NCBI RefSeq assembly: GCF_000020025.1
Contig: NC_010628.1
Coordinates: 4,140,001-4,172,000 of the forward strand
Source: Nostoc punctiforme PCC 73102
GTDB taxonomy: Bacteria > Cyanobacteriota > Cyanobacteriia > Cyanobacteriales > Nostocaceae
DNA length: 32,000 bases
Reading direction: 5' to 3'
A model generated the notes under the pieces. That model worked only from the letters and a program-made list of their open reading frames with translations, ran no database searches and had not been told where the DNA came from. This document shows, piece after piece, positions 4,463 to 22,305 of this stretch (within the stretch, counting starts at the first letter, position 1; the number at the start of each line of letters is the position of its first letter). The position numbers and the translations under genes were made by a program.

Positions 4463-4626
4463 CAATCAACCTTTGTACTCCTGATTAATCGTATTAGGGG
4501 TTATGACGAAATAGGCGTACCGTGCCAAACCGTAGAAATTGTAGGTTAAAGCTGAAACTAAGATGGGGTAGGCTTTTAAGTAAGTTTACTTACCATAAAA
4601 TTGGTAAAAAATGGTATTAATCTTCG

Positions 4627-7563
4627 TCAATTTAAAGCTGTGTAGTCGCCATAAAGATTAAATCCTGCCCATAAGAAAAGGCTATCAGTATTTACATTGC
4701 AGTTAGGCAGACAGTTATTTAGGCAATCTAACTGAGTCCGATGCAAAGCTTCATCTCGTGGGAATTTATCTAAATAGTTGTAAAAACGGGTCATAAAAGA
4801 TACTGCGATTTTATCGTCTACCTTCCAAAGACAACCAAGAATGCTTTGAGTTCCAGACCGCCAGAGTGTTTCTGGTAAGCTGATAATCCAGCGACCAGGG
4901 AGGATAAAGTGATCTGCTGACCAACAGGAAGAGAGGGTTGCATGGCGCAAATTCGTTAAGTTCATTTCTGATAATTCTCTGAGGCTGAGAATCTCTTGTT
5001 CTTTATAATCAGAGATAAATACCAGTCCTGACTGGTCTGGTTGATTTAACTCAAAAGTGCCATGACAAGCAATATGAAGTAAGGTTACTTGAGATAAATT
5101 TTCAACAACAGTACTTTTAGAACTATTTACAAAAGAAAAGCGATGAATATGATTGCGATCTAGCCAGTCTTCTACCTGTTTTAGTTCTGGTTTAACTCCT
5201 TTTAGGAATGAAAATTGCTTGTTACCGTTAGACACGCCTACTACTAACGCTTTTTGTTTGGAAATAATTGAATTAGAAGGCGATCGCCTACCTTTGGACT
5301 CGTAAGCTATAGAAATGGCATAATGCTCAATTAAATACTTTTCTTTGTAGCGTATGGCGGCAAACGGAAAGCCATGCAAAATATCATCAGGTACAATTGT
5401 CAATGCCCGAATGTCTTTGGGTAAACCTTCTAGCAGCTTGGGAAATGCTAGCATTTCTGCAAGAGTTTTAGCTACTTCCTGCCCCACATTTGCTACCTCT
5501 GCCATCTCTTCTTCATATTCGCCCTGCCAATTCACATTCATATCTCGATGATAATTAATATCACGGTTGCTATCAATACTGTTGATTGGTTGGTCATAGA
5601 TATCTCGACCATTGTTAATATTCTTGATAAGTTTGTACCAGTGTTGTACCTGATTACGCACTTCCAAACGAGTAGTAAGAATAACATGAAAATCAAATAA
5701 AAATCGCCCTGTTTTCACAACTAAAACACGATCTGGCAGAATCAAAAATGAAAGAGTAATTCTGTCTTTTGGGTGAGTCAACAGCCGTAGCCACAATGAT
5801 GCAGGAGGTAAAAATGGAACTTTTATTCTGTCGCCTTTAATTGTACGTTTGGCTAATACATCCTTGTATCTGTCGATATGTTCCACTAAAGCATTCAGTT
5901 GTTGTATTAGCTGCAAGCGTTGCCAAAGAAAGAGCCAAAAAGCTCCCGTACTAACTTTTAGTTGCAAACGTTGCAACTGATTAATTTGTGCAGCAATGTA
6001 TTCCTCATCTGCTGTCCATTTATTCAACAGATAAAATACCTGGTCTTCTGGCGCAAGGGATGAGGTAATTTGTTCTAGTAAATAATTTGTTGATGCTGTT
6101 AAAGCTTCTATTTCCGGGAGTGGATAATTTAATCTAGTGCGACACCAAACTAATATCCTCTGTACCTGCCAAAGTTCTGGTCTTAAACCTATGTTCTGTA
6201 ATTGAGGATGAATTTCCTCCAAAATCTGATGTGCTTGATAAATTTTGGTCAAGTCACTGTTCTCTGTGCCTTCATAGTAAGCAAAAGTTCCTTCCAATAC
6301 CCGTATTTGTATTTTGATCAGGACCGAATCAGTACAATTGAATACCTTTTTTATGTGCTGGAGTAAATCGCCCGCAGTTTTCAGATTGAGGTTGCTCAAC
6401 TGCCATTGAAAGGCTAATGCGCGGTCTTCAAACCAAGTTAAATAATTGGAAGATTGAGTTGATAAGTCTAGTCTTGCTTCTACTTCTGCTACAGCTTGTT
6501 TATTATTTATTTTTTTATTCATTCCAAATACTGAGAGTTCCACAGGACTATTAACCACAAGGGAACGACTACGGGCATAGCATAGTTGCAATAATAAGTC
6601 TGCCCTTGCTGCTAAAGCTGCATCATCAATAGTAGAGGCATCGCTTTGGGTGTCCATTAAATAACTCTGAGCAGCACTGGTTTGGTTGAGAAAAATTAAG
6701 ATATGGGCAAGACTGAGGTTTGAACGCAACACCGCGCGTTGTGAACGAAGTTGACAGCATCTTTCTTGAACTTGTCGGAATTGTTTTAAACTAGTACCTA
6801 AATTTCCCAAAAGCAGATTGAGTTTACCAGATAGTTCCAACCAATGGATAAAATGTTCTGGATGCTGGGGTTGATTGAGTTGGCTTTCTAAATCGGAGAG
6901 ATAAGTCTGTGCATCCTCAAAATGTCCCTTTTCCTGGAGGACAGAGGCGATCGCCAACTTTAGTGGTAGTATAGTTTGCTGTGCTAAAGAAGATACTTTC
7001 TCTCCCTCAGCATGAAATAAACCCCGTTGCAAAGCAACAAGAGCCTCTCCGTATTGTCCCAAAGCAGCTAGCAATCGCCCCATCGCTAGGTATAATTCAG
7101 CAAATAAAACAGTCCGGTCTTCTGAGTCGGTATCATGCCAAAAACAACCCGCCTCCCACCGTAATAATCCTGGTAACACAAATTGAATATTATTAATGTC
7201 CCCAATGCGTGGAGCCATTTCTTGCAGTAAGTCTTGTGCTTGATCTAAAGTTCCTCTATCTATGCATAGTTGAATACGTCTTAGACAAGTATAATCAGCT
7301 AAACATTCATTCTTTGACTCCTTATATAAATCAACAGCTCCACAAAGCAAGTCATCAGCCGCTTGGAATTCACCCAATAAACCAGCTAAGTCTGCCAAGG
7401 ACTGGATAACTTTCAAATCTGCATCAACCAACCGGGAATATAAAAGGCGATGAGTAAAAATTTTGCATAAATCATCGTAAGCCCCTAGTAAATTGCCTTG
7501 AAGCCATTTTGTTTCGGCTAATTCAAAAGCAGTGTTGAGTTCAACAAAGGTATCGTATGGCAA
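4627..7563 (-). CDS. TPR-repeat / CHAT-domain (caspase-fold) protease, 978 aa
   Basis: The C-terminal ~300 aa has a CHAT-type His and Cys dyad context: VTLLHIACHGTFELNQPDQSGLVF and RHATLSSCWSADH. The N-terminal ~400 aa is helical-repeat/TPR-like (e.g. GRLLAALGQYGEALVALQRGL, LQEKGHFEDAQTYLSDL). No signal peptide. The ORF starts with TTG just after an in-frame stop. Confidence 0.8.
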   Translation of the reverse strand: MPYDTFVELNTAFELAETKWLQGNLLGAYDDLCKIFTHRLLYSRLVDADLKVIQSLADLAGLLGEFQAADDLLCGAVDLYKESKNECLADYTCLRRIQLCIDRGTLDQAQDLLQEMAPRIGDINNIQFVLPGLLRWEAGCFWHDTDSEDRTVLFAELYLAMGRLLAALGQYGEALVALQRGLFHAEGEKVSSLAQQTILPLKLAIASVLQEKGHFEDAQTYLSDLESQLNQPQHPEHFIHWLELSGKLNLLLGNLGTSLKQFRQVQERCCQLRSQRAVLRSNLSLAHILIFLNQTSAAQSYLMDTQSDASTIDDAALAARADLLLQLCYARSRSLVVNSPVELSVFGMNKKINNKQAVAEVEARLDLSTQSSNYLTWFEDRALAFQWQLSNLNLKTAGDLLQHIKKVFNCTDSVLIKIQIRVLEGTFAYYEGTENSDLTKIYQAHQILEEIHPQLQNIGLRPELWQVQRILVWCRTRLNYPLPEIEALTASTNYLLEQITSSLAPEDQVFYLLNKWTADEEYIAAQINQLQRLQLKVSTGAFWLFLWQRLQLIQQLNALVEHIDRYKDVLAKRTIKGDRIKVPFLPPASLWLRLLTHPKDRITLSFLILPDRVLVVKTGRFLFDFHVILTTRLEVRNQVQHWYKLIKNINNGRDIYDQPINSIDSNRDINYHRDMNVNWQGEYEEEMAEVANVGQEVAKTLAEMLAFPKLLEGLPKDIRALTIVPDDILHGFPFAAIRYKEKYLIEHYAISIAYESKGRRSPSNSIISKQKALVVGVSNGNKQFSFLKGVKPELKQVEDWLDRNHIHRFSFVNSSKSTVVENLSQVTLLHIACHGTFELNQPDQSGLVFISDYKEQEILSLRELSEMNLTNLRHATLSSCWSADHFILPGRWIISLPETLWRSGTQSILGCLWKVDDKIAVSFMTRFYNYLDKFPRDEALHRTQLDCLNNCLPNCNVNTDSLFLWAGFNLYGDYTALN

Positions 7564-7703
7564 ACTAACACCCCCTTAGATTTGAGATTTTGGATGAAAA
7601 ATCTAACATTCTGTAGAGACACTAACATATAACGTTTCTATAAGAATTTGGTTACACAAGAGGTGAATGGAAAATCAAAATATTCACCAAATTAAACAGT
7701 TAC

Positions 7704-10700
7704 TCAATTTTTTTCTGATGTGGTCACAACATAAACAGGTTTTTCTAGAGGACATTTGTTTGTATTCTGATTTTTATCTGATTCATCTTTTTCCTGGCAT
7801 CCATTGTTAGTAACAAAGCGTTGGGGATAATTTTGAAATTGGAATCTTAAGGAATCTCCAATGTTAGAAGCTGTAGTTTTAGTGGAAGGATTACTAGATA
7901 CGCTCACATCTCCCAACCCACTATGACGGATTTTAACTCTGCCTATTTCTCCGGGTTTGAGTTTATAGAATCTGGCTCCTGAACCAAAAGGAACACTTTG
8001 TTCAATCGACTGTTTAAATTGTAAATTGTTTAAACCAGGAGAATCTTGCACATAAATAAATTCTGTGTTGTTCTCTATGACTTTGAAGTTGCGATTATTA
8101 ATTTCATCAAAGAAATTTTGCTTAAACAGTTTCGCTCCTTCAGGAGTAATTCTTTCTACTTTTAGTCTACCTTCATACACATTCACCGCTGCTTTACGCA
8201 ATATCAGGTTCGGTTCTGAACCATGCAATTTGATTGATTCGTTAATTGATTTGGCAGCTCTAGTGTAATCCCCAGCTTTCAGTTCTCCATCAATTTTTTT
8301 GATTCGGAATTGTAAGTCTAGCTTCTGGCTTATAACATACTTAACTGGCTCTGCGGCGAGCTTCTGGGCTTCTTTGCGGTAATTATACGAACTTTTATAA
8401 TTTGCTCCTTTACCAGAAAGTTGTTGAAAACCCTGTGTTTGTTGTGAAACCTGCGCTTCATTTAAAGATTCAAAATTAAAATTACGGGCACCATCCTCTG
8501 GTTCAGCTACTGACATTATCCGTTTTGAAGGTGGTTTTGCACCACCTCCACTACCATCTGCTAAAGGCTGTTCACTAAATTTTAGCCATTTATTATTGGA
8601 CTTAGAAAGTTGAACAAAATAATCATTAGGTTGGGACGGAGAATACCTAACAAACACAACATCATCCATTTCCCTCAGAGCATTGAGAACACTCACTTTT
8701 TTTGGATTAAGGCGTGAAGTTCCTACGCTAAGGCGCGAAGCTAGGGAATATCCAGCATCTATATCTCGACTTTCAAAACCTACCTTAAAACCATTTGCCG
8801 TCTTGGAGATGTTCAGATTACCAAATTCAGTATCGCCGATGGCATTTTCTAGCTTTAGTCCATCGGGTATCTGCGTTACTTTGCTGCTAAATGGCTGATT
8901 TGTTAGTTCAACATTTGGACTGCGTAGTTTTGCTTCCGGTTTAGGTTCTACTATAGTTTCGCTAACAGTTTTACTTAGAGGTCTTACTCTGTATTTAGTA
9001 CCATCTAAAGTTTTAAATTCGAGTTTACCTCTTTGGAATTTTACAGACTTGTAGTCAATGTTAGACCTGCCGAGATTGCCTATTTTACTATCTTTAGGTA
9101 AAGAGATACGACCTTCAAAGTTTTTTCCGCCAGCCAGAGAAACCCCTCCATAAAGAGATGGATAGGGCTTCCCGTACTTCTTATCAATGTTTTCTGACTC
9201 TAAAAATTTCAATTTCTCTGTTTTTCTACCCTTATAGTTGTAGCCCTCAGAGAGAAATGTAATTGCGTCCCATTTTTTAAATTTCAAGCGTTCCCCTTGA
9301 GTTCCAACCCAATCTGGGAACCAGTTGTCTCGTTTAACTTTTACTGCTTGTAAAAAGCTCAAAGGATTGCTTTGTTCATACTGAAGGGAGAGTTCGTTTT
9401 GTTGGTGCTGATTGAGCCAATTAATTACTAAACTCCACTTCATAATTTGATTAAGCCGTTCATATTGTGGCTCATAGCGAGCAACTTCTTTATAGTGGTT
9501 GTTCCACCAGTTCAGAAAGGCAGCGGTATCTGGAGGCGCATTTGTTTCCTTGTTTGATTGAGGGCGGTCAGAAGAAGCAGCTTTGATCTGTGTGGCATTA
9601 GGAGCAAAAATAATATCCCTATTTTCATTTGCTACTTGAAATCCCTTGTCGTCTGGTTCAAGCCAAAGCCGAACATAGTTTGATTGTTTAAGTTCTGATT
9701 TATAAATTGGTGAAACAGCGATTCTGGTCTCTGGGTTAAAGCCTTCAATGTCAGTTTCTAGAGTAGCTTTTTGAAAGTTGAATTCCCAGATTTTCATCAA
9801 TAAGTCGGTATAGAACAGGGTCATTCCGACTTCCGTTCCTTGTAAACCCTCTTTTTTATCTTGCAAATTACCATTATATCGAGCTATCTGGAAACCATTT
9901 TTTTGTTGTGCGTTTAACAAATCATAAATTTCTTTCTTCTTGCTAGAAATTATTTCCTTCTTTTTCCAAGGTATTTCTTGTTCAAGATACTTTTCCCATT
10001 CGCTCTCCAACTTTTTTTGCTCGTGGTCTATGGCAATAATTTTTGCATGTATTTCTTCAGGAGATAAGCCAGATTCAAGTGCTTGCTGTATTTCTTTTTG
10101 AGATTGTTCTTTTGACTGCTTAATGCTCTGTTGACTTGCTTTATACTTTTTATCTTTATATATATTTAATTCCTTTTCAATTTCTGCTGCAAGTTTTTCT
10201 TTGCTAAATGCTTGATTTACAAGTTCTTCTGAACTCAAAAAATTTTCCAATTTAGCAATTAAATTGAAATAAGATTTTTTGTCTTGACGTAATAAACCCT
10301 GCTTTGCTTCTTGAATATCTTGGTCACTAATTATGAGTTTACCATCTAGTTTGAGTTTTTGGAGTAAAGGTTTTGCCTTCTCTAAAGCTTGTGCAATACG
10401 AGGATAGTCAAATTCCCAATCTAGAGAAAAGAGACTACCATTGATATTATTAAAATCTGACTGCCAAAGTGCTGCAATATCTTCTACGCGCAGACCTTGA
10501 TGTTTACGCTTATCTTTATCTTTATAAATCTTACGACCGCCCACATTCAAACTGGAACCATTAACTTGAGCAAAGGTAATATCATCAACCTGATTAAGGA
10601 AACTTTGCAGGTCATTCTGGCTGTTGATGGTGGTTTCAAAGTATCCGTAAGCACTACTAAAGATTTGTTCGCCGTTTATCGGCTCTTTTCTAGAAATAAC

Positions 10701-11231
10701 AGATGACTGCTTGTCAGGAGCAATTTCGTACTCAAATACCTCAATGATTTTAGGCTTTTCTCCTTGATCTTTGCGGTGACGATCAGCAATATGGGCAAGG
10801 TCATCCATACGCTGTTCTTTGGAAGCAGTGTTAGGCACTAGGGCAACTATTTTCCCATCACCGACATAGCGAGAGCGAGTGCTACCATACTCAAAATTGG
10901 CAACAGGACTTATAAAGTCATAGCGCACTGCTGGGAGGTCGTAGACACCCTGACTTATTTTTTCGGTGGAAAGCCCTTTGCCTGAAAGAGCAGTCATTAG
11001 TAACCAATCTCTTAATTGATCATCTTTTTGGCGTTTCGTCAACTTATAAAAGCCCTCATTCGGCTCAAAATTGACCGTCTGAGGTCGATTCAGGGGAAAG
11101 TTTTTGTCGGTTATGACTTCTATCGGTTGTACTACAGCTTGGGAAGCGCTGGTTTGGGCGTACACCATCCCCAAAGCTACAGGAGATGCAACAAGAACAG
11201 TGATACTCAACAAATCAATGATTTTTCTCAT
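7704..11231 (-). CDS. Large secreted protein of unknown function, 1175 aa
   Basis: The N-terminus MRKIIDLLSITVLVASPVALGMVYAQTSA looks like a Sec signal peptide. A central K/E/Q-rich coiled-coil-like stretch follows (...KQSKEQSQKEIQQALESGLSPEEIHAKIIAIDHEQKKLESEWEKYLEQE...). A strong RBS (AAGGAGGA) sits in the 19-nt spacer after the upstream gene's stop. I recognise no family. Confidence 0.75.
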   Translation of the reverse strand: MRKIIDLLSITVLVASPVALGMVYAQTSASQAVVQPIEVITDKNFPLNRPQTVNFEPNEGFYKLTKRQKDDQLRDWLLMTALSGKGLSTEKISQGVYDLPAVRYDFISPVANFEYGSTRSRYVGDGKIVALVPNTASKEQRMDDLAHIADRHRKDQGEKPKIIEVFEYEIAPDKQSSVISRKEPINGEQIFSSAYGYFETTINSQNDLQSFLNQVDDITFAQVNGSSLNVGGRKIYKDKDKRKHQGLRVEDIAALWQSDFNNINGSLFSLDWEFDYPRIAQALEKAKPLLQKLKLDGKLIISDQDIQEAKQGLLRQDKKSYFNLIAKLENFLSSEELVNQAFSKEKLAAEIEKELNIYKDKKYKASQQSIKQSKEQSQKEIQQALESGLSPEEIHAKIIAIDHEQKKLESEWEKYLEQEIPWKKKEIISSKKKEIYDLLNAQQKNGFQIARYNGNLQDKKEGLQGTEVGMTLFYTDLLMKIWEFNFQKATLETDIEGFNPETRIAVSPIYKSELKQSNYVRLWLEPDDKGFQVANENRDIIFAPNATQIKAASSDRPQSNKETNAPPDTAAFLNWWNNHYKEVARYEPQYERLNQIMKWSLVINWLNQHQQNELSLQYEQSNPLSFLQAVKVKRDNWFPDWVGTQGERLKFKKWDAITFLSEGYNYKGRKTEKLKFLESENIDKKYGKPYPSLYGGVSLAGGKNFEGRISLPKDSKIGNLGRSNIDYKSVKFQRGKLEFKTLDGTKYRVRPLSKTVSETIVEPKPEAKLRSPNVELTNQPFSSKVTQIPDGLKLENAIGDTEFGNLNISKTANGFKVGFESRDIDAGYSLASRLSVGTSRLNPKKVSVLNALREMDDVVFVRYSPSQPNDYFVQLSKSNNKWLKFSEQPLADGSGGGAKPPSKRIMSVAEPEDGARNFNFESLNEAQVSQQTQGFQQLSGKGANYKSSYNYRKEAQKLAAEPVKYVISQKLDLQFRIKKIDGELKAGDYTRAAKSINESIKLHGSEPNLILRKAAVNVYEGRLKVERITPEGAKLFKQNFFDEINNRNFKVIENNTEFIYVQDSPGLNNLQFKQSIEQSVPFGSGARFYKLKPGEIGRVKIRHSGLGDVSVSSNPSTKTTASNIGDSLRFQFQNYPQRFVTNNGCQEKDESDKNQNTNKCPLEKPVYVVTTSEKN

Positions 11232-11250
11232 GACTGATTCCTCCTTGCGT

Positions 11251-13155
11251 TTATGGTTTTTGTAATTGGCGATAGAGTTCTAAATAGTCCTCATTATCTT
11301 TTTTGAGTTGCTCCCCTGGTTGTCCAGCAACATATCGCACCAAGGATTCTTCATAGAGTTCCAGCACTCGTGACATCCGTTCATCTTTGCCAAGGATAGG
11401 TGCGTTATTAAAAAATTCTTTAGATGCTTTTAGCACTGCTTCATCATTCTGAACTTGCTTCGCCATCAGAATCATGTCATAAGCCTTTTGTCGTACTGCA
11501 AGCGTCGTCTGTTCTCGCATGACGATATAACCAGTCACAACTATCAATACACTTGCAACCATCGCTTGTAGCTTGATGCGCTTGTCTTGAGCACTGAAAA
11601 GCCACGGTAACAAAGGTTCTGTGCTGAGTCGAGGTTTTATAGATGCAGGTGTGAGGATAGGAGATGATTCTGAGTGTCCTGTAGGGGGTGTTACCAAGAC
11701 GCGATGTCTGGTGACAAACCCTTCCCCTCTGGTTTCATCTTCAAACAAACTATTTTCTAGATAGCCGCAGATAGGTGCAAAATCTAGTTCTGCCAAGTCT
11801 GGACTACTATCAACTACTACTTTCCAAACACTTGGTACATCTGCTTTTGTCTGAGGTGGATGTTGTAATACACTGTTAAGTGCCTCCCATAACTGGACTG
11901 CGATTTTGGTCGATTTGCTGGTAGATTTGATTGGCTTTGTTTTGCTATTAGGGGACTCCATCCAACCTTCACGAGGTTCTGATAGCCCAATGCTGTACCA
12001 AAGTTGAATTGCTTCTGCAATATAAAACACCCTTGTTGTTTCCTTGGCTTCATCTGAATCAATGTATGCATTCATCCATGCAAAACCTTTGTTGGCTCCT
12101 ATAAGCAGGGGATATCCATCCCAAGCGGATGGTACACCAGATTCCATCTCGTCTTGCAATCTGTTTTTCAAGTCCAGCAGTTCATTACGTGCTTTGTAAG
12201 CTTTTGCCAGATTGGGATTATAGGTAATTGCTTTTTGGACAGAGATGAAAGCATTAAACAATTGATGGCTACGTACCAAACTCACTGAATGCAAGTGATA
12301 TAAACTAGCCAAAAGTTGAAAAATTGTTAAGTTATAAGGATACTTTTTTAAAAATTTCCTTAACTCCCTAATTCCAGGTTGCAAATTCTTGGCGTTTTGG
12401 GCATACTGGTCTTTGGTTTCTGCATCCCAACACTTTGACAAAGTTTTTAAGTAGTAAATCTCTACTAGTTCACCTTGAAACTCAATATTATTCGGTAACC
12501 ATTTCAGCCGTTGCTCACAGCAATTAATCGCTTTGTGCCATTTTTTAGCTTCTTTATACACAGTAATTCGTGTCTGCCAAGCTTCTCCTAATAAATTTTT
12601 TACTTCTTGAGCAGATACAGGAGATAATTTCAATAGCTGCTGAATATAGTCGATATGAACAAATGCACGCTCTTTCCAAGACAGTTTTCTAGACTTTAAT
12701 ATCAATCCGTTGTAGAAAGCGCAGTGAGTGTTAATAAATAATTCATTCATTAAGTGCTGACGCAGTTTTACAGGATCGTTCATTATCTGAACACCAGGCT
12801 TATTGGCTACAATTAACGTAATTGTCTGCCATAAATCTGGCTTATTTAGTAAAGCCTTTAATTCAATTTGCATCTGATTCCAGAAAAAATCAGCCCTTTG
12901 CCACTTGGCAGCAATTTCTGCTTCTATTGCTAGTTTATGCTGAAGTAATAAATGCCCTAATTGACCTTTTAAATCTAACCCCAATTCAGTAAATTTCTGC
13001 CAAGTAGCGAAATCTTGGTTGGCAAGCTGTAACAGATTTTTCCCAGCTTGTTGGTCAGCAGTTAATTCTGTTTCCTCGGAACTCAGGTTATAAAGATTTG
13101 CTGAGATAACAGGGAATACTCGCTCTTGAGGACGACATAAAAGTGCTATCATCAT
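11251..13155 (-). CDS. Helical-repeat protein with a single C-proximal transmembrane helix, 634 aa, unknown function
   Basis: Long ORF with TPR-like helical segments (e.g. FISVQKAITYNPNLAKAYKARNELLDLKNRL). One hydrophobic segment, LQAMVASVLIVVTGYIVM, is preceded by basic residues (QDKRIK) and followed by a ~90-aa tail. The stop is 19 nt before the next gene's ATG, so they are probably co-translated. Confidence 0.7.
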   Translation of the reverse strand: MMIALLCRPQERVFPVISANLYNLSSEETELTADQQAGKNLLQLANQDFATWQKFTELGLDLKGQLGHLLLQHKLAIEAEIAAKWQRADFFWNQMQIELKALLNKPDLWQTITLIVANKPGVQIMNDPVKLRQHLMNELFINTHCAFYNGLILKSRKLSWKERAFVHIDYIQQLLKLSPVSAQEVKNLLGEAWQTRITVYKEAKKWHKAINCCEQRLKWLPNNIEFQGELVEIYYLKTLSKCWDAETKDQYAQNAKNLQPGIRELRKFLKKYPYNLTIFQLLASLYHLHSVSLVRSHQLFNAFISVQKAITYNPNLAKAYKARNELLDLKNRLQDEMESGVPSAWDGYPLLIGANKGFAWMNAYIDSDEAKETTRVFYIAEAIQLWYSIGLSEPREGWMESPNSKTKPIKSTSKSTKIAVQLWEALNSVLQHPPQTKADVPSVWKVVVDSSPDLAELDFAPICGYLENSLFEDETRGEGFVTRHRVLVTPPTGHSESSPILTPASIKPRLSTEPLLPWLFSAQDKRIKLQAMVASVLIVVTGYIVMREQTTLAVRQKAYDMILMAKQVQNDEAVLKASKEFFNNAPILGKDERMSRVLELYEESLVRYVAGQPGEQLKKDNEDYLELYRQLQKP

Positions 13156-13410
13156 AAAAAACTCTGGTAGATGATTATGTGTTTGCTATCAAAAATCTAA
13201 ATTTGAAATAATAATTTTTTCCCAATCGACTTTGTAAGTCAATATATTAGCTAATACCAAAAATCAATTATTAGTGCAATACAGTAAAGTGCAATTTTAC
13301 AAGTGGCACAATCTTAAGTAAACTTATTACAGCGCAATTTCAAGTTGATGGAGTACAGAATTTAGGTCTGCTAGCCAGACATAAAAGCTGTTTAACTCCT
13401 GAATTTTTCT

Positions 13411-15729
13411 CTATGTAAGATCATTATCATATGTAACTGGATTTAAATTTTTATTAAGATCGGTTTTGGATTTTTCTAACAAGGCAGAAAAATTATAATA
13501 GGATGTTTTTTGCTTATCTGATTTATCTGACTGCGATTTTTGCCAGATTATCCAGCCCAAAAATATCGCTATTAAAGGCAATACCAAAAACAATCCTATT
13601 CTCAAATGTCTAAATAACCTGTGTAAATTTTTCTGTTTAACTTGTTTATCCGTATCATCATTAGGTGTTGCAGTGATAATTAATATTTGACTAGTCATCC
13701 ATTCATCCAAAACTTCAGGCTTTTGAGGTTCATCTTTATAAGGAACTATCGCACGAGATTGAATTTTTCGTATCAGATTATTGAAGCTATTACTTTTCGT
13801 AACATATACTTGTGTATTATCATTAGAAGGATGGTGATTAGACTTTTCAATATTACCTTGTATCAGCAAATCAGCATCAAATTCACTAATACTAACAATT
13901 AGTTTAAGGATATCTTTATACTCTGTATACTCTGTTACTCCCTGATGCCCAAAATTTTGAGGTATAACCATAGAGATATCTCTTCCTTCTAAAGCCCAAA
14001 TTTCTTGGCCTGGTTGCAACAATATTCCAGTCCTAACTCCTGCAAAAGGAATTCCTGTAACAGCAAAAAGTTCGGTTAAATTCAGCAAAACGCAGTAAAG
14101 AGCATTTTCACTTTTATTAGTTAGTTTTATCCTAATTATTGGAGGTTCTAACTTTCCATTATTGGCTTGATATTTTAAATAAATCGGGTAATCGTGAATT
14201 TCTGATTCCTGTTGATAAACTTGCATTTGTACCGCATCACTTGAAATTAAACTGTTTGCAGGACTTGTAATGGTAGCTATATTTATCCATCGTGCAATAT
14301 GTTCTAAAGCATGAATTGCTTGTAATGCACTTTCTGAGGTAAATCCTGGAATTGGGGATATTAATTGGCGCTGATCGCTAACGCGTATAATGAAATATTT
14401 ATCACCTAAAGCTTGCAAGCAAACATCTGCTTCGTTGAAATTATCTACTTCACCAATATAAAGTGAATGGCTTTCACCAAAACTAGCTGTTTGAATAGCT
14501 TGACGTGCATAGTTAACTCCAGATTCTTCTCCTTTCAAATAAACTTTCAAAAAAGATGCAGGTAAACTAGTAATCACAGCTTTGTAAGTTAACTCTGGAT
14601 CTAATATTTCTCTTTCTCCAGAGATATTAATTCGGCTCAATTGTGGTAAAACTTCTGTAATTTCTGCTACAGCGATCGCATCTTGTAGCTGGCTAATATC
14701 TTCTACATTTATGGGAAAGATAGCTAACCTTGTTTTTTCATTTCCGTTACTATAAATAATACCATGAATCGCACCTGCATCAATACTCCAACCATTGAGT
14801 CCATCATAAATAATGGTAAAGTATATTTGTCGTTGACCAACTATACCCCCTAAAAAAGGCTGGTCTAAGTAATTGGAATTTGTCGCTTCAATTTGCGGCG
14901 ATTGTTTGGGATATAAACTGCGAACTAAGGCATTAGTTCGCTTAAATAAATCACGATAATTTAAACTGCCATTTCGTTGTAAGCTGTCCATTAAAAAGTA
15001 GGAAAATACTCCTCTTTTTTGGCTACGATGTTCTTTTGCCTCTTCATTATCTCGGCAAGCGGCTAAAAGTATGTATTCCCCCTGTGGGATAAAAAACTTA
15101 TTTGATTCGTTGTCATTCAAATCAGATTTAGAAAAGAAACTATTGATTTCTTTCTCTGACAATATAAAGCTAGAAAGTGGTCTTTCTCTCAATTCAGTAT
15201 TGACTGAACGTATACCGGTATATTGCAAATTAAATTTATCTGAAGAAACATCATCATTTTCGTCTCGTGTCCCTCCACCAGAATGACAACAATCCAAAAT
15301 TATAACAATATGTGGGTGATTTTGAGAAACCTCTGCAATTAATTTCGCAATTTCTTTATCAGCTAAATCCCAAATATCATCTGTCCGACTATCCCAACAA
15401 ACCAAAGTTTCATTCAAATGGTCTGGTTCTAAATTCCAAAATTCCTGTCCAGCGCGTTCTTGAGAACCATGACCGCTGAAGTAAAATAACGCAACATCAT
15501 TACTTTTCGCCTGACAGAGATGTTCCCGAAAACCGTCAATAATCGCTTGACGAGTCGCTTCATGATTTATGAGTTTCTTGATAAATAATTTATCCTCATT
15601 ATTCGTTAAGTGTTTTCTTAAAAACTCATCAATCACTGTGATATCGTTAACGCATCCTTTTAAAGGAGGAATTGTATGAGATTGATAATTATTAATTCCA
15701 ACAGTTAAAGCATAAACACTCCGACTCAT
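13411..15729 (-). CDS. Membrane-anchored orthocaspase (peptidase C14, caspase/metacaspase-like), 772 aa
   Basis: N-terminal caspase p20-like domain: YALTVGINNY..., catalytic His context VALFYFSGHGSQ (His codon 15469-15471), catalytic Cys context HIVIILDCCHSGGGTRD. An unassigned middle region of about 450 aa follows. A C-terminal TM helix (IGLFLVLPLIAIFLGWIIW) follows basic residues. Confidence 0.85.
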   Translation of the reverse strand: MSRSVYALTVGINNYQSHTIPPLKGCVNDITVIDEFLRKHLTNNEDKLFIKKLINHEATRQAIIDGFREHLCQAKSNDVALFYFSGHGSQERAGQEFWNLEPDHLNETLVCWDSRTDDIWDLADKEIAKLIAEVSQNHPHIVIILDCCHSGGGTRDENDDVSSDKFNLQYTGIRSVNTELRERPLSSFILSEKEINSFFSKSDLNDNESNKFFIPQGEYILLAACRDNEEAKEHRSQKRGVFSYFLMDSLQRNGSLNYRDLFKRTNALVRSLYPKQSPQIEATNSNYLDQPFLGGIVGQRQIYFTIIYDGLNGWSIDAGAIHGIIYSNGNEKTRLAIFPINVEDISQLQDAIAVAEITEVLPQLSRINISGEREILDPELTYKAVITSLPASFLKVYLKGEESGVNYARQAIQTASFGESHSLYIGEVDNFNEADVCLQALGDKYFIIRVSDQRQLISPIPGFTSESALQAIHALEHIARWINIATITSPANSLISSDAVQMQVYQQESEIHDYPIYLKYQANNGKLEPPIIRIKLTNKSENALYCVLLNLTELFAVTGIPFAGVRTGILLQPGQEIWALEGRDISMVIPQNFGHQGVTEYTEYKDILKLIVSISEFDADLLIQGNIEKSNHHPSNDNTQVYVTKSNSFNNLIRKIQSRAIVPYKDEPQKPEVLDEWMTSQILIITATPNDDTDKQVKQKNLHRLFRHLRIGLFLVLPLIAIFLGWIIWQKSQSDKSDKQKTSYYNFSALLEKSKTDLNKNLNPVTYDNDLT

Positions 15730-15833: not shown

Positions 15834-16820
15834 CTAAATAATAAATTTTGTGATGACGCTATCTCCTCTGAAACTAATTTTTAAACTAAATTTATCTCCA
15901 ACATTTCCTTTAAATCTAAGTTGCAACCAGTTACTTGCCTTTGCTTGCTTTTCAAGCTGACGAATAGGGTTATCTTTCTCATCTAGTAATGTCATCTTTA
16001 TTCCATCTAATAAGAATATTGATTCACTAGCTGGATAAAGACGTAAGATAATTTCAATCTCATCTGGACTTAATCGTGTCTGGCGGAGAATTAAAAGCAC
16101 TGGTTCAGAAAGATGCATGAGATGAATAATTCTTGCACCACCTACTTCTTCTTTGTCAGTAACATTAACAGGAGAAATATCTTTGGGAACAGCTAATACA
16201 TTAGGAATATCTTTGGCAATAGCTAATTCATATTCCCATCCACTGTCTAATAATCCTTTAAACCATTTGCTTAGTTTAACTATGCTTTCGTTAAGTTGAT
16301 TCCTTGCAATTTCAGAAATATCTGGATTAGAAGGATCATAATTTTCAATTTTTTGTAATTTTTGTAGGTAAATTAAAAAATCTTGCAGGGAGCCTAATTT
16401 GCTTAAAGCCAATTTTTCGTTAGAAACTGATTCTACAAAACCTACTATTTTTGCTTGTCTATCAAGCTCATCAATTTCTACTACCATATAACCAATACGC
16501 TCTGATAAAATTTCTGCTGGAATCTCACAAAAATCTTCTCTTGGAAGTACAGGACGACACTCCAATAAACCTTTATCTTTGATAAATATGCTGGCAGTAT
16601 TCATTAAAGATAGTACAACACTATCCAAACCATAACTTTTGCTAAATTCTGTTTCAATTTCCATGCACTGACAGAAAAACTCAACTGCCAATAAAGCCAA
16701 AGTATTGAGATAAACCTCACGAGTTTTTTGTTCGTTGCGCTGTTGCTGGCTCAATTTATTAGCAATATTAATCATTTCCCGGCTGATAGGTATTGTAAAA
16801 GCCAATTGATTAGAATTCAT
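15834..16820 (-). CDS. DUF1822-family protein (cyanobacterial, unknown function), 328 aa
   Basis: The N-terminal pattern ...TREVYLNTLALLAVEFFCQCMEIETEFSKSYGLDSVVLSLMNTASIFIKDKGLLECRPVLP... matches my recollection of the conserved DUF1822 core (YLNTLA..., ...LECRPVL). Size about 300 aa. RBS AGGAGA lies upstream of the ATG. Needs HMM confirmation. Confidence 0.6.
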   Translation of the reverse strand: MNSNQLAFTIPISREMINIANKLSQQQRNEQKTREVYLNTLALLAVEFFCQCMEIETEFSKSYGLDSVVLSLMNTASIFIKDKGLLECRPVLPREDFCEIPAEILSERIGYMVVEIDELDRQAKIVGFVESVSNEKLALSKLGSLQDFLIYLQKLQKIENYDPSNPDISEIARNQLNESIVKLSKWFKGLLDSGWEYELAIAKDIPNVLAVPKDISPVNVTDKEEVGGARIIHLMHLSEPVLLILRQTRLSPDEIEIILRLYPASESIFLLDGIKMTLLDEKDNPIRQLEKQAKASNWLQLRFKGNVGDKFSLKISFRGDSVITKFII

Positions 16821-16868: not shown

Positions 16869-17648
16869 TTAGTCAGATGAATCTGAAGGATAACTGTTCT
16901 TCTTTTTTAGATGGACTTCTAAATTGAGATATTTTCTAAAATAAGGAGCAAATTTTTCACAACATCTTCTATAAAATGTGAAAACAGGCCCGTGGGTTTT
17001 CCCTAATTTTAATTCTTCAACTATCTCTTTCCACGACTTCCCCTCTTCCCCTCTTTTAAGTAAAATAATTTGAAAGCTAGCTTTCGGGTTGCTATTGAAC
17101 AGTGTATTTGTGAATAATCCTTCTGGATCTTCTTTAATAAAAGCTATTAGGTTTTCAGATGGAAGAGAATTATTAACTTCTGGAGGGCAATAAACGTCGA
17201 GAATATTTATCTCAGATTCATCACTATCTTTATATATAGATGTAATTTTCCCATTCCACTTTATCCAATTAAAATTATTTATTTTTCTTTTGAAGAATAG
17301 AAAAATAAACCATCTCATGAAAGGATTTTTTCTGGGTTCATTGTTATCTATTTTTTTTACATTAATCCTTTCTGGGTCAAATTTTTCTATATTTTTACAA
17401 ACATACAACAAGGTATTTTGGAGCGTTTCTTCATAAAGATATGATAAATCGATGCTTTTTGGTTTGGGTAACTCAATTTTTATCTGCTCCATTAATACAC
17501 TCATTAGTTCTGTAAGTAAAATCTGTTTTTCTAATAATGCTTGCTGTCTCACTTCATAACTGTGCGAGTCATCCTTAGCTCGTATTGCTGCTGTTTTAGC
17601 TCTCACAGCTAGTTCTTCTAAAGAAGGCTGTGGTCGATTTTGAACCAT
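16869..17648 (-). CDS. Sigma-70-like / HTH protein (putative partner of DUF1822), 259 aa
   Basis: A region-2-like segment (LQNTLLYVCKNIEKFDPER...NPFMRWFIFLF) and a C-terminal region-4-like HTH segment (KSWKEIVEELKLGKTHGPVFTFYRRCCEKFAPYFRKYL). It lies 48 nt upstream of the DUF1822 gene on the same strand. The assignment is weak and made by eye. Confidence 0.4.
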   Translation of the reverse strand: MVQNRPQPSLEELAVRAKTAAIRAKDDSHSYEVRQQALLEKQILLTELMSVLMEQIKIELPKPKSIDLSYLYEETLQNTLLYVCKNIEKFDPERINVKKIDNNEPRKNPFMRWFIFLFFKRKINNFNWIKWNGKITSIYKDSDESEINILDVYCPPEVNNSLPSENLIAFIKEDPEGLFTNTLFNSNPKASFQIILLKRGEEGKSWKEIVEELKLGKTHGPVFTFYRRCCEKFAPYFRKYLNLEVHLKKKNSYPSDSSD

Positions 17649-17949
17649 CGCAAAATACCCCTTATTTGTGCATTTGCTATTTATTTTTAGTTATTCATTT
17701 AACTTTGATTGACAAAACTTTAACTATAAGTGTCTTCAAGACAATGACTATCCAAGCTAATTACTCCTCGCTTTTTTAGATTCCTATATCAGTCTCCAAA
17801 GATAGAGTGTAGTTTTATGCATATTGGAAAAAAATCTGAATATTTTTTCAGGTTGGAAAGACTCTTACCTTCTCACACCACATCCAAGCCACTTTTTCAT
17901 TCAAAATGAAAAGCTTAAGGAAGCAGTTGGCGAGGCTATTTGCTGATAT

Positions 17950-21951: not shown

Positions 21952-22305
21952 TTGGCAACTAAAATGTTTATGCAAGAAGAAATTATCTCGATTGTTACCG
22001 ATAATGTTCAATTTCCAGCAGAAACAAGGAATTGGGAAGCTCCATCTGAAGGTGCTACTAAGTACAAAGTAGAGATTAGCGCCGATAAGTTAGAGCAAGA
22101 AATGGGTCGGTTTTTACAAATAGTAAGTCGTTTATTTAAACGTGCAGAGATAGAAACTGAAAAAAAACCTGGAATACACCTTGATGAAATTGAGCTATCA
22201 GTAGAAATTAATGGCGAAGGTAAGGTTAGCTTAATTGGAAGTGGTGCAAAAGCTGGTGGTAAAGCAGCAATAACCCTAAAGTTTAAACGAACCGAATTAG
22301 AGTGA
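21952..22305 (+). CDS. Small trypco2-like (trypsin-co-occurring domain 2 / CU044_2847-like) protein, 117 aa
   Basis: The C-terminal pattern HLDEIELSVEINGEGKVSLIGSGAKAGGKAAITLKFKR resembles the family hallmark (...EVEFGVKLTAEAG...AK.GGEA.LKVKLTW). Small size, and located 139 nt upstream of a CHAT protease gene. The real start may be ATG 21964. Confidence 0.55.
   Translation: MATKMFMQEEIISIVTDNVQFPAETRNWEAPSEGATKYKVEISADKLEQEMGRFLQIVSRLFKRAEIETEKKPGIHLDEIELSVEINGEGKVSLIGSGAKAGGKAAITLKFKRTELE

Follow-up and report, generated by a model that had tools for sequence, protein, structure and literature searches.

A 1175-aa protein of Nostoc punctiforme PCC 73102 founds an unnamed family without a known fold and is the constant component of a gene module that also encodes a single-pass membrane protein and a TPR-CHAT protease. 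Of 75 loci selected on homology to the 1175-aa protein alone, ~32 have the three genes as neighbours, and we conclude from this that the genes are functionally linked. Whether the trio forms the core of a conserved envelope-spanning module, in which surface sensing is relayed to one or more internal proteases, we regard as an evenly balanced question.

Gene arrangement in the window and at other loci

The window is the whole 32,000-nt stretch of N. punctiforme DNA that was analysed. The features relevant here are as follows (positions in the window).

4627..7563, minus strand: 978-aa TPR-CHAT protease gene, product predicted to be cytoplasmic, TTG start
7704..11231, minus strand: gene for the 1175-aa protein, predicted to be extracytoplasmic
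11232..11250, minus strand: 19-nt spacer between the 634-aa and 1175-aa genes, sequence read directly
11251..13155, minus strand: gene for the 634-aa protein, predicted to be a single-pass membrane protein
11254..11658, minus strand: conserved C-terminal module of the 634-aa protein (residues 500–634)
13411..15729, minus strand: 772-aa orthocaspase gene (Pfam and PADLOC matches)
15834..16820, minus strand: 328-aa DUF1822 protein gene (Pfam)
16869..17648, minus strand: gene for a 259-aa candidate ECF-like sigma factor, divergent (from orthologues and family profile)
17793..17821, minus strand: a conserved element that resembles a promoter (TGCATAAAA-N15-GGAGA); it lies 173 nt upstream of the sigma-like gene
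18609..20927, plus strand: 772-aa STAND protein gene, divergent from the cluster (Pfam matches)

Reading the sequence and the list of open reading frames confirmed the coordinates and spacers first given for the trio, whose genes are all on the minus strand. The 19 nt between the 634-aa and 1175-aa genes (ACGCAAGGAGGAATCAGTC) contain the ribosome-binding site of the latter, AAGGAGGA; 140 nt separate the 1175-aa gene from the CHAT gene, and 255 nt separate the orthocaspase gene from the 634-aa gene. The DUF1822 gene lies 104 nt upstream of the Peptidase_C14 (orthocaspase) gene, and the sigma-like gene opens this same-strand cluster of six genes. The TTG start of the 978-aa gene is supported by its orthologues, which have ATG at the aligned position. 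A Pepco-CHAT pair, a relaxase and IS elements are also found in the window, as is the STAND protein.

The 75 distinct loci came from contigs of one genome per species and were picked solely by homology to the 1175-aa protein, whose neighbours were then grouped by unbiased clustering. A TPR-CHAT gene is near the 1175-aa homologue in 49 loci, immediately downstream in 45 of them, and a 634-aa homologue is present in 37, always immediately upstream. Full trios occur in Cyanobacteria, Acidobacteriota, Verrucomicrobiota, Gemmatimonadota, Pseudomonadota and Myxococcota. At least six phyla have the genes in one order (membrane partner, then 1175-aa protein, then CHAT) at 30–50% identity, an arrangement far beyond chance, and at an acidobacterial locus (L003) genes that include the equivalents of the 634-aa and 1175-aa genes overlap by 4 nt; gaps are short at many non-cyanobacterial loci. 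The trio, put forward in the preliminary description as a candidate module, thus proved to be a set of conserved neighbours. Identity between most loci is 24–54%, reaching 87% only with the closest Nostoc MAG, which argues against a single, recently transferred island. Loci in Bacteroidota and Actinomycetota pair a 1175-aa relative, often a lipoprotein, with a cytoplasmic CHAT protein; no membrane partner was detectable at these loci, and a trans-membrane link is unexplained there. Among sequenced isolates, Pseudomonas sp. C2B4 and Bradyrhizobium ganzhouense JCM19881 carry compact versions of the module.

The 255-nt gap, first noted as separating the trio from the orthocaspase gene, does not bound the unit: 26 of the 75 loci have a caspase of the same subfamily next to the trio, mostly two genes upstream, and the orthocaspase is a frequent fourth component of the module. 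In cyanobacteria, the cluster includes, besides the orthocaspase, the DUF1822 gene (14 loci, in most of them the third gene upstream of the 1175-aa homologue) and the sigma-like gene (9–12 loci). The STAND protein, in which Pfam recognises a Sigma70_r4 helix-turn-helix, an NB-ARC ATPase and TPRs, is a probable regulator travelling with the cyanobacterial cluster: a divergent homologue of 763–772 aa holds the same position in L004, L008, L010, L016 and L022.

Predicted topology and conserved parts of the proteins

The N-terminus of the 1175-aa protein reads MRKIIDLLSITVLVASPVALGMVYAQ, and residues 345–444 form a two-helix hairpin in the AlphaFold2 model (pLDDT 80.7, pTM 0.78), in agreement with the signal peptide and coiled-coil-like centre originally noted. 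It was also said to belong to no recognised family, and this held throughout: there was no match in Pfam, NCBIfam or PADLOC, and no PDB match either to the model by Foldseek at E ≤ 1e-3 or to the sequence profile. Each of at least 191 homologues is labelled 'hypothetical', and the family comprises 978 clusters (clustering at 50% identity) among 1.84 billion representatives at E ≤ 1e-3. In the conservation profile, residues ~40–300, ~445–700 and a stretch near 1041–1080 are conserved, and the variable parts are the coiled-coil hairpin (320–440) and the region past ~840, except ~1041–1080. Family members are ~1,100–1,300 aa long and are predicted to be held by a signal peptide, signal anchor or lipobox; a hydropathy scan found an N-terminal signal peptide, membrane anchor or lipobox in 64 of 69 full-length relatives. 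We considered an adhesin or S-layer protein and rejected it, there being no family or fold match and a distribution tied to the TPR-CHAT protein and the membrane partner.

The 634-aa protein consists of an all-helical TPR domain (~33–471), a disordered linker (475–514) and a conserved C-terminal module (AlphaFold2 pLDDT 84.6). Its family profile matches the TPR repeats of OGT (profile positions 197–346; E 8e-8), Foldseek returned generic TPR superhelices only, and there was no NCBIfam match; the locus tags of its 29 homologues adjoin those of 1175-aa homologues. As in the preliminary description, there is one membrane helix, with basic residues on its N-side and a short tail: the single Kyte–Doolittle peak is at residues 527–545 (~11515–11577 in the DNA), preceded by DKRIK and followed by ~87 residues. 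Given that the large N-terminal domain has no signal, the membrane partner must be N-in, C-out. The C-terminal module would accordingly comprise a cytoplasmic juxtamembrane motif (EPFxPWLFSxQDKRIK), the membrane helix and an external helical domain of ~85 aa.

The module lies immediately upstream of the 1175-aa homologue in 37–39 of the 75 loci. At ten loci (L001, L009–L012, L018, L024, L026, L048 and L060) it is a stand-alone protein of 125–174 aa, and in one MAG (L055) it is fused in frame to the N-terminus of the 1175-aa relative, where it replaces the signal peptide. The external tail had been proposed as the partner of the 1175-aa protein, and the large TPR domain as the link to CHAT. Conservation of the tail module and the L055 fusion suggest that the tail is indeed the natural partner. 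The TPR domain, however, is not a general link to CHAT, since it is absent from the ten loci, nine of which keep a CHAT gene; the tenth has TIR and TPR genes in its place. In the 634-aa protein, conservation lies in the C-terminal module, not the TPR domain, and the conserved juxtamembrane motif is the better candidate for the CHAT link.

In the 978-aa protein, a helical N-terminal domain (residues 1–690) with weak Pfam TPR matches precedes the CHAT domain (Pfam PF12770; residues 695–973, or 4645–5481 in the DNA; E 3.4e-72; 243.8 bits against a cut-off of 24; model positions 1–289). In an alignment of the window's protein with its counterparts at other loci, 42 of the 43 sequences retain the catalytic dyad, His834 (HIACHG) and Cys880 (LSSCWS), which we take as a sign of an active protease. 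Hydropathy scans found no hydrophobic N-terminus, consistent with the lack of a signal peptide reported earlier, and no hydrophobic segment above threshold in this protein; they found an N-terminal signal in none of 42 CHAT partners. These simple scans, together with comparative logic, support a placement of the 1175-aa protein outside the cytoplasmic membrane and of the CHAT protease inside.

The orthocaspase has a Peptidase_C14 domain (residues 6–284; Pfam E 3e-25; PADLOC 'caspase' PDLC02987, E 4.6e-40) with His and Cys motifs FSGHGS and LDCCHSGG, a conserved middle, one C-terminal membrane helix (711–729) and a 43-aa tail. The C-terminus is variable, with a membrane helix in cyanobacteria and a lipase-like alpha/beta-hydrolase in L054, L065 and L066. 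Among the components, only the caspase matched a PADLOC defence model, and no gasdermin family was among the Pfam matches of window ORFs of at least 100 aa. The DUF1822 assignment is by Pfam (E 3.9e-45). The window's 259-aa sigma-like protein has no Pfam match; five of 12 orthologues match Sigma70_r2 below the cut-off (best E 4e-4), one matches Sigma70_r4_2, and the family profile matches SigK (PDB) at E 1.6e-3. From these orthologues and sub-threshold scores, the protein is a candidate divergent ECF-like sigma factor. Upstream of its gene, TGCATAAA is present in all 12 regions compared (the window and 11 loci), and 11 of these regions have GAGA at a constant spacing; in a shuffle control any dyad reached at most four regions, and the element occurs once in the window. 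Acidobacteriota have a sigma-like gene with a candidate zf-HC2 membrane anti-sigma factor (above the Pfam cut-off in one of four). The caspase is flanked by sigma-like and partner genes in both Cyanobacteria and Acidobacteriota, with no detectable relationship between the cyanobacterial partner protein (DUF1822) and the acidobacterial one (the zf-HC2 candidate).

Direction and purpose of the proposed signal

We propose that the 1175-aa protein would bind the membrane partner's external domain and sense a surface cue, for example an attacking phage, a competitor or damage to the envelope. The single-pass partner would carry the signal across the membrane, and its juxtamembrane motif, with the TPR domain where present, would engage or release the cytoplasmic protease or proteases. 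The outputs would be proteolytic, and may include freeing the sigma factor from its partner and switching on death effectors, which at variant loci include TIR and lipase-like domains. The module probably links cell-surface events to an internal protease or cell-death response; we infer the more specific role of an 'envelope-damage or invasion sensor', together with the trigger and the direction of the signal.

Partners of the 1175-aa protein are exchanged between loci. A Pyrinomonadaceae locus (L001) has TIR instead of CHAT and TIR-DUF4384 instead of the caspase, and neighbours elsewhere include kinase-TIR-DUF4384, PNP_UDP_1 and TIR proteins. Such swaps, the variable ends of the caspase, some of them lipase-like, and the patchy spread of the 1175-aa family over phyla point to a conflict or cell-death system. 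We suggest, tentatively and while leaning against it, that the module is a bacterial counterpart of death-receptor signalling, with an external receptor, a single-pass adaptor, internal caspase-fold proteases, and suicide effectors plus a sigma programme.

The same components could instead signal from the inside out. CHAT, the orthocaspase or both would sense an intracellular cue through their repeats and cleave the membrane partner at its basic juxtamembrane motif, thereby freeing or activating the 1175-aa protein as an envelope-damaging effector (lysis or a pore). Orthocaspases cleave after basic residues, and the motif holds K/R residues (QDKRIK). The long helical hairpin of the 1175-aa model would also suit a pore, and Foldseek matches to the model include the alpha-pore-forming AhlC and PaxB; however, these matches are not significant (E 1.3–1.7), and conservation within the protein is lowest in the hairpin. 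Caspase-fold proteases commonly sense or bind partners through TPRs, as in Craspase and DdvA (PMC11506125), but it is the cytoplasmic enzymes that are swapped here (TIR, lipase-like, PNP) while the 1175-aa protein is constant, and effectors are the variable part of the conflict systems of Kaur et al. (PMC7159879). Given also that the adjoining sigma-like genes and candidate membrane anti-sigma factors favour an outside-in signal, we consider the reverse direction improbable.

An outside-in signal might still serve housekeeping or development rather than immunity or suicide. The external protein would then track the assembly of the envelope or cell wall, or the contacts that cells of a filament make with each other, and the proteases would tune a sigma regulon by regulated proteolysis, like RseA/DegS or HetF in heterocyst development. 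The sigma-like and partner genes that adjoin the module in two phyla and the conserved promoter-like element fit such a role, as do the carriers, mostly bacteria with complex or multicellular lifestyles, and the name of the CHAT domain, which derives from HetF, a developmental protease. The distribution, however, is not normal for essential housekeeping systems: the family is rare and patchy (a pattern-limited scan of 185,579 species genomes confirmed 111 stretches that encode a 1175-aa relative), Calothrix sp. PCC 7103 has two copies (L009 and L014), and the genes of Calothrix PCC 6303 are interrupted by IS elements. TIR, lipase-like and PNP domains that replace or accompany the proteases, and a window crowded with conflict and mobile genes, likewise tell against this role, which we judge unlikely. 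Finally, the genes might be mere neighbours in a variable island, the 1175-aa protein being an independent adhesin or surface-layer protein without a link to the protease. The 140-nt and 255-nt gaps within the window's cluster would allow this, as would the roughly one-third of 1175-aa loci without a CHAT gene. Recurrence of the trio in the same order, with overlapping genes at some loci and an in-frame fusion at one, and the lack of a match to any adhesin, S-layer or other family speak against it; we give this reading very little credence, and synteny brings it close to refuted.

To our knowledge, most bacterial immune and cell-death sensors detect cytoplasmic cues. A conserved module of an external protein and a caspase-like protease would offer a case in which the coupling of surface sensing to a proteolytic response can be tested. 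If the death-receptor reading is true, the module would represent a new class of immune sensor, with a fold unseen before, that acts before foreign molecules enter the cytoplasm. In addition, the module would provide a working context for three uncharacterised families (the 1175-aa family, the small membrane module and the TPR-CHAT subfamily), and ties the cyanobacterial DUF1822 and sigma-like genes to a concrete neighbouring module.

Comparison with known systems

We found no characterised system of the trio's composition in the literature, as the preliminary description had anticipated. The RseA/RseB/DegS/RseP (sigma-E) and LapB-FtsH systems use regulated proteolysis to signal the state of the envelope across the inner membrane, but their proteins are unrelated to those described here, whose proteases have the caspase fold. 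LapB is a membrane-anchored TPR adaptor of a protease, with its membrane helix at the N-terminus, TPRs in the cytoplasm and a rubredoxin-like zinc site at the C-terminus. Although NCBI names one 634-aa homologue 'LapB', we rejected this identity: the topology is the opposite (TPRs N-terminal, membrane helix C-terminal), the similarity is that of generic TPRs, and no zinc-binding or rubredoxin family is among the Pfam matches of the 634-aa protein.

Craspase (type III-E CRISPR) combines the TPR-CHAT protease Csx29 with Csx30, Csx31 and RpoE, and resembles the present module in its protease and in an output that involves a sigma factor. Its trigger, however, is a cytoplasmic RNA, and it has no envelope component. 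The 978-aa protein was rejected as a Csx29: the window has no CRISPR-type tandem array, no cas family is among the Pfam matches of its ORFs of at least 100 aa, and the protein matched no PDB chain by sequence at E ≤ 0.01, solved Csx29 chains included.

Two studies describe systems that share other parts. In the two-gene EACC1 system, a small single-pass membrane protein is proposed as the sensor for a caspase with variable effectors (Kaur et al. 2020, PMC7159879). Both elements have counterparts here, but EACC1 systems are without a large external protein and without TPR-CHAT. The window's caspase is not of the EACC1-associated type (NCBIfam NF047832), scoring 55.1 bits against a cut-off of 140. 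The TRADD-N/EACC2-caspase systems of Kaur et al. 2021 (PMC8195603), a purely computational study, have DUF1822, a family labelled 'TRADD-N+TPRs' in its tables, together with an ECF sigma factor. They fit the window's DUF1822 gene and its caspase with a membrane helix, and would also fit the candidate sigma-like gene; the last two genes of a neighbourhood quoted from that study are probably this module. EACC2 is an alpha+beta domain N-terminal to the caspase domain (PMC8195603), and seems to be absent here, since the caspase domain begins at residue 6 and the ORF is not extendable upstream. The external protein, the membrane partner and the TPR-CHAT link are neither named nor discussed in PMC8195603, and in other phyla the trio is also found without DUF1822 or the caspase.

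DdvA-DdvS of Myxococcus xanthus, a transmembrane anti-sigma factor with a periplasmic TPR-CHAT region and an ECF sigma factor, controls phage-defence genes (PMC11506125). It is a precedent for the proposed relay, as here too a TPR-CHAT fold would be tied to trans-membrane signalling and, at part of the loci, to a candidate ECF-type sigma factor. DdvA-type proteins have a zinc anti-sigma domain at the N-terminus, then a membrane helix and the periplasmic TPR-CHAT (PMC11506125); the 978-aa protein was rejected as one of these, as it has no membrane helix or signal and its Pfam matches are CHAT and weak TPR only. Whereas DdvA is a single polypeptide whose TPR-CHAT is periplasmic with an incomplete active site (PMC11506125), the TPR-CHAT protein of this module is separate, predicted to be cytoplasmic, and has an intact dyad. 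The external part is an unrelated protein of ~1,200 aa, and a separate small partner would cross the membrane.

Gene layout and conservation of the trio

The trio, comprising a 634-aa membrane partner, a 1175-aa extracytoplasmic protein and a 978-aa TPR-CHAT protease, makes up the last three of six consecutive genes on one strand.

Genes of the six-gene run
17648..16869, minus strand, 259-aa protein (sigma-like gene), first of the six
16820..15834, minus strand, DUF1822 protein, second of the six
15729..13411, minus strand, Peptidase_C14 orthocaspase with a C-terminal membrane helix, third of the six
13155..11251, minus strand, 634-aa protein, ORF call
11231..7704, minus strand, 1175-aa protein, ORF call
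7563..4627, minus strand, 978-aa protein with a TTG start, ORF call

The ORFs of the trio fall exactly where the preliminary description had placed them, and its three spacers were all recovered: 19 nt between the 634-aa and 1175-aa ORFs, read directly as ACGCAAGGAGGAATCAGTC, and gaps of 140 nt ahead of the CHAT gene and 255 nt ahead of the 634-aa gene. Orthologues of the CHAT gene start with ATG at the aligned position, in support of its TTG start.

Neighbouring features in the window
18609..20927, plus strand, STAND protein (Sigma70_r4 helix-turn-helix, NB-ARC ATPase, TPRs), divergent from the cluster, with 960 nt between the two
21952-22305, plus strand, Pepco-domain protein, 117 aa (E 3.7e-28)
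22445-24544, plus strand, 699-aa protein, CHAT domain at its C-terminal end (E 3.9e-17), after the Pepco gene
560-3115, minus strand, VirB4/TraC-like ATPase, also matching PADLOC mad8; mobile-element gene
3180-4442, plus strand, DDE_Tnp_1 transposase, split over two ORFs; mobile-element gene
25421-26923, minus strand, Mob_Pre relaxase with DUF3991; mobile-element gene
28700-30010, plus strand, DDE_5 transposase; mobile-element gene
27587-28003, plus strand, member of the 23S rRNA-intervening-sequence protein family (E 8e-25)

The STAND protein, which has a homologue at the same place in five fetched loci (L004, L008, L010, L016 and L022), may be a regulator of the cluster. The Pepco-CHAT pair is a second, separate caspase-fold pair, so the window holds three caspase-fold proteases. 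IS fragments are also present; the neighbourhood is mobile and conflict-rich, and a conjugative or mobilisable element that integrated here may account for the region, at least in part. The hexamer ATTGTT is repeated 9.3 times at 649-705, within the VirB4-like ORF. The window contains no CRISPR-type array and no Rfam match, and scans for promoter and terminator consensus sequences gave matches no commoner than in shuffled sequence.

We found at least 191 homologues of the 1175-aa protein, every one labelled hypothetical and without Pfam domains. Among 1.84 billion cluster representatives, a profile search gave 978 matches at E ≤ 1e-3, of which 873 reached E ≤ 1e-10. Scanning one genome per species, with the 1175-aa protein as the sole criterion, retrieved 78 loci (75 distinct), an undercount of the family since the scan used two peptide patterns. 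The sources were Cyanobacteria, Acidobacteriota, Verrucomicrobiota, Gemmatimonadota, Planctomycetota, Bacteroidota, Myxococcota, Actinomycetota, Magnetococcales, one Pseudomonas isolate (sp. C2B4, L039) and Bradyrhizobium ganzhouense (L065), the last two having compact loci. Genes in these loci are our own calls from a simple greedy ORF caller; ORFs were labelled using jackhmmer profiles seeded with pieces of the window proteins, and the labels were cross-checked by label-free clustering of all neighbours.

Counted over the 75 distinct loci, as lower bounds given that contig ends cut some of them, a TPR-CHAT gene is present in 49 (directly downstream on the same strand in 45) and a relative of the 634-aa protein in 37, always directly upstream of the 1175-aa relative. 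A caspase of the window's subfamily occurs in 26, mostly two genes upstream. DUF1822 (14 loci) and the 259-aa family (9-12 loci) are confined to cyanobacteria. The whole trio is found in identical order in ~32 loci, at 30-50% identity of the 1175-aa protein, a result decisively in favour of the earlier proposal, which would have been refuted had the three genes not stayed neighbours elsewhere. We conclude that the components are associated. In one Acidobacteriota locus (L003), the caspase, membrane partner, 1175-aa relative and CHAT genes overlap by 4 nt each. In Calothrix sp. PCC 6303 (L004, about 3983-15110), ISL3-family transposases break the caspase gene and remove the end of the 1175-aa homologue; the system is therefore decaying in this strain.

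Membrane topology and the small membrane module

The AF2 model of the 1175-aa protein was good (pLDDT 80.7, pTM 0.78). From the N-terminus, alpha/beta domains (residues ~37-300) lead into a long hairpin of two helices (345-444). The next region (446-650) is alpha/beta and strongly conserved, with the family's signature motifs VGMxLFYTD and WWNxHYEEV; after it come a beta-rich region (660-940), a helical segment and a C-terminal beta region. Conservation peaks at 40-300 and 445-700 and is lowest in the hairpin. The protein had no match in Pfam, NCBIfam or PADLOC, and a 57-sequence family profile had none at E ≤ 1 among all PDB sequences. Foldseek with the model returned nothing from the PDB at E ≤ 1e-3 and, from viral structures, a single match (TM 0.14) with a superposition too poor to interpret; tblastn detected no relative in plasmids and phages. 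An identity as an adhesin or S-layer protein was unsupported by any test run here. The original view that this protein belongs to no recognised family stands, with no family, fold or sequence match found.

Topology was derived from Kyte-Doolittle hydropathy scans and logic, not from dedicated predictors. The 634-aa protein has a single membrane helix, peaking at 527-545, with DKRIK ahead of it and ~87 residues behind; because ~520 signal-less residues precede this sole helix, the N-terminus lies inside and the tail outside. The one hydrophobic segment of the 1175-aa protein is N-terminal, and 64 of 69 full-length relatives carry a hydrophobic export signal at this end, compared with an N-terminal signal in none of 42 CHAT partners. 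The export signal resembles an uncleaved anchor in many Acidobacteriota relatives, and several from Bacteroidota, Actinomycetota and Planctomycetota have a lipobox; that of the window's protein could be either cleaved (between VYA and Q) or an anchor. These patterns agree, across phyla, with the initial assignment of the 1175-aa protein and the 634-aa tail to the outside and of the CHAT protein to the inside. In Bacteroidota and Actinomycetota, the 1175-aa relative is often a lipoprotein and the CHAT protein is cytoplasmic, but no membrane partner was detectable in these loci, which leaves a gap in the proposed mechanism.

The conserved part of the 634-aa protein is its last ~135 residues, not its helical-repeat domain. 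Four elements make up this small membrane module: on the cytoplasmic side, a juxtamembrane motif with the consensus EPFxPWLFSxQDKRIK; the membrane helix itself; a turn, R..AY; and an external domain of ~85 aa with three helices (D.R...V..LY.E.LVRW). In ten loci (L001, L009-L012, L018, L024, L026, L048 and L060) it stands alone as a 125-174-aa protein, and nine of the ten keep the CHAT gene; in L001, genes for TIR and TPR proteins take its place. A fused form occurs in a Candidatus Angelobacter MAG (L055, 6665-10723, plus strand), where the module is joined in frame to a 1175-aa relative, its membrane helix and external domain standing at the N-terminus in lieu of the signal peptide; no CHAT gene follows the fusion gene. 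Since the fusion joins them, the tail and the 1175-aa protein occupy one compartment, and it argues that they work together. No further fusion was found among the 272 fetched proteins scanned, and a module profile search for fusions to other cytoplasmic domains returned only three short stand-alone copies.

The N-domain of the 634-aa protein is a TPR superhelix. Pfam gave one weak TPR match only, the family profile matches OGT TPR repeats (E 8e-8), and the AF2 model is all-helical (pLDDT 84.6), with generic TPR superhelices as its only Foldseek matches. The preliminary description suggested that this domain could bridge to the TPRs of the CHAT protein. However, the N-domain occurs in just 26-28 loci and is missing from the ten in which the module stands alone, so such a bridge cannot be the general mechanism; we infer that the juxtamembrane motif is a better candidate link to CHAT. 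NCBI names the homologue from Nostoc sp. 2RC (P0122) "lipopolysaccharide assembly protein LapB", a name that seems to rest on generic TPR similarity, because the domain order is the reverse of that of LapB.

Proteases, swapped enzymes and a candidate sigma link

The 978-aa protein has a full CHAT domain at 695-973 (Pfam, E 3.4e-72), weak TPR matches and no hydrophobic segment, bearing out its description as a signal-less TPR-CHAT protein. The catalytic dyad, His834/Cys880, is intact in 42 of 43 aligned CHAT sequences (the window's protein and partners elsewhere). Judged by these residues, the CHAT partners appear to be active proteases, in contrast to DdvA. In the stretch leading up to the CHAT domain, residues ~651-700 are acidic and asparagine-rich, with a mean conservation of 0.18 compared with 0.4-0.6 elsewhere; this segment may serve as a linker, or as a loop for self-cleavage or inhibition.

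Common to the accompanying caspases are a C14 domain at the N-terminus and a conserved middle region, in which two members have weak, sub-threshold similarity to DUF4384. They vary at the C-terminal end, where cyanobacterial members have a membrane helix and those of L054, L065 and L066 a lipase-like alpha/beta-hydrolase (DUF7379, DUF676, PGAP1-like). Partners are also swapped outright: in a Pyrinomonadaceae locus (L001), TIR-DUF4384 occupies the caspase position, and in place of CHAT stand a TIR protein and, encoded separately, a TPR protein related to the N-domain of CHAT partners. Other loci add kinase-TIR-DUF4384, PNP_UDP_1 phosphorylase or TIR proteins. Conflict systems have a constant sensor-like core with swappable enzymes (Kaur et al., PMC7159879, PMC8195603), and by analogy the constant core of the trio with its swapped enzymes matches this pattern.

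In four loci from Bacteroidota and Bryobacteraceae (L044, 14039-15333; L061, 14466-15667; L068, 14604-15317 plus the ORF that follows; L073, 15039-16245), the 1175-aa relative is longer (1422-1729 aa) and is followed by a ~215-237-aa protein, then by a small one that has one or two membrane helices. AHH...CHS motifs in the ~215-237-aa proteins align with the CHAT His and Cys. A reading of the ~220-aa Bacteroidota proteins as minimal CHAT-like proteases lacked statistical support, the hhalign probability being 0.3% and the similarity not significant.

The 259-aa family is a candidate divergent ECF-like sigma factor: 5 of 12 orthologues match Sigma70_r2 (best E 4e-4), one matches r4_2 and the family profile matches SigK (E 1.6e-3); the window's own copy gave no match. 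In five Acidobacteriota loci, an unrelated gene pair flanks the caspase, holding the place of the sigma-like gene and DUF1822 in cyanobacteria.

Caspase-flanking sigma/anti-sigma candidates
L003, 4564-6028
L028, 1207-1803
L033, 17905-19409
L035, 317-1812
L060, 20334-21784

One member (192-209 aa) has sub-threshold Sigma70_r4_2 matches and is a candidate ECF-like sigma factor. The other (272-300 aa), a candidate membrane anti-sigma factor that was not found in L028, has a membrane helix and weak zf-HC2 similarity, above the Pfam cut-off in one of four proteins. Because sigma-like genes with unrelated partner genes share this position in two phyla, the arrangement supports a functional tie to sigma-factor signalling.

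An element, TGCATAAAA-N15-GGAGA, is conserved at a distance of 123-385 nt ahead of the sigma-like gene in each of 12 regions (the window and 11 loci). TGCATAAA is likewise present in 12 of 12, with GAGA at a fixed distance in 11.

Upstream element
17793-17821, minus strand, TGCATAAAA-N15-GGAGA, only copy in the window

This element could function as a promoter recognised by the sigma-like protein, or the STAND regulator could use it as an operator. No copy lies ahead of the 634-aa or CHAT genes in the window; hence nothing indicates that sigma-dependent promoters are shared, and all six genes may be under a single putative promoter.

Candidate mechanism and relation to known systems

We propose that the 1175-aa protein would act as a sensor, binding the external domain of the membrane partner, and that a signal would pass inwards across the membrane. 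The juxtamembrane motif, with the TPR domain where present, would then control the cytoplasmic proteases, the outputs being sigma release and/or death effectors. We consider this outside-in mechanism, taken whole, to have an even chance of being correct. A regulatory, non-immune role for the same components is unlikely. Signalling in the opposite direction, from inside to out with the external protein as effector, is distinctly unlikely. That the genes are neighbours by coincidence is extremely improbable, given the ~32 loci with the trio in order.

In the literature covered, which included only some of the subscription journals' papers, the sole trace of the module was a single operon string listed in a supplementary table. 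Kaur et al. 2021 described computationally a set of TRADD-N/EACC2-caspase/ECF/DUF1822 neighbourhoods, into which the upstream half of the cluster fits; their operon string is probably the same module, seen there and never discussed. Tested for membership of the Craspase, DdvA-type, EACC1 and LapB groups, the module fell into none of them. The closest characterised system is DdvA-DdvS (PMC11506125). There, an ECF sigma factor is held by one membrane protein whose TPR-CHAT domain lies in the periplasm and is catalytically incomplete; the parts of the trio are arranged quite differently. The module is of a known kind, that of conflict or signalling systems which combine the caspase fold with membrane sensors, and two of its components belong to no known family.
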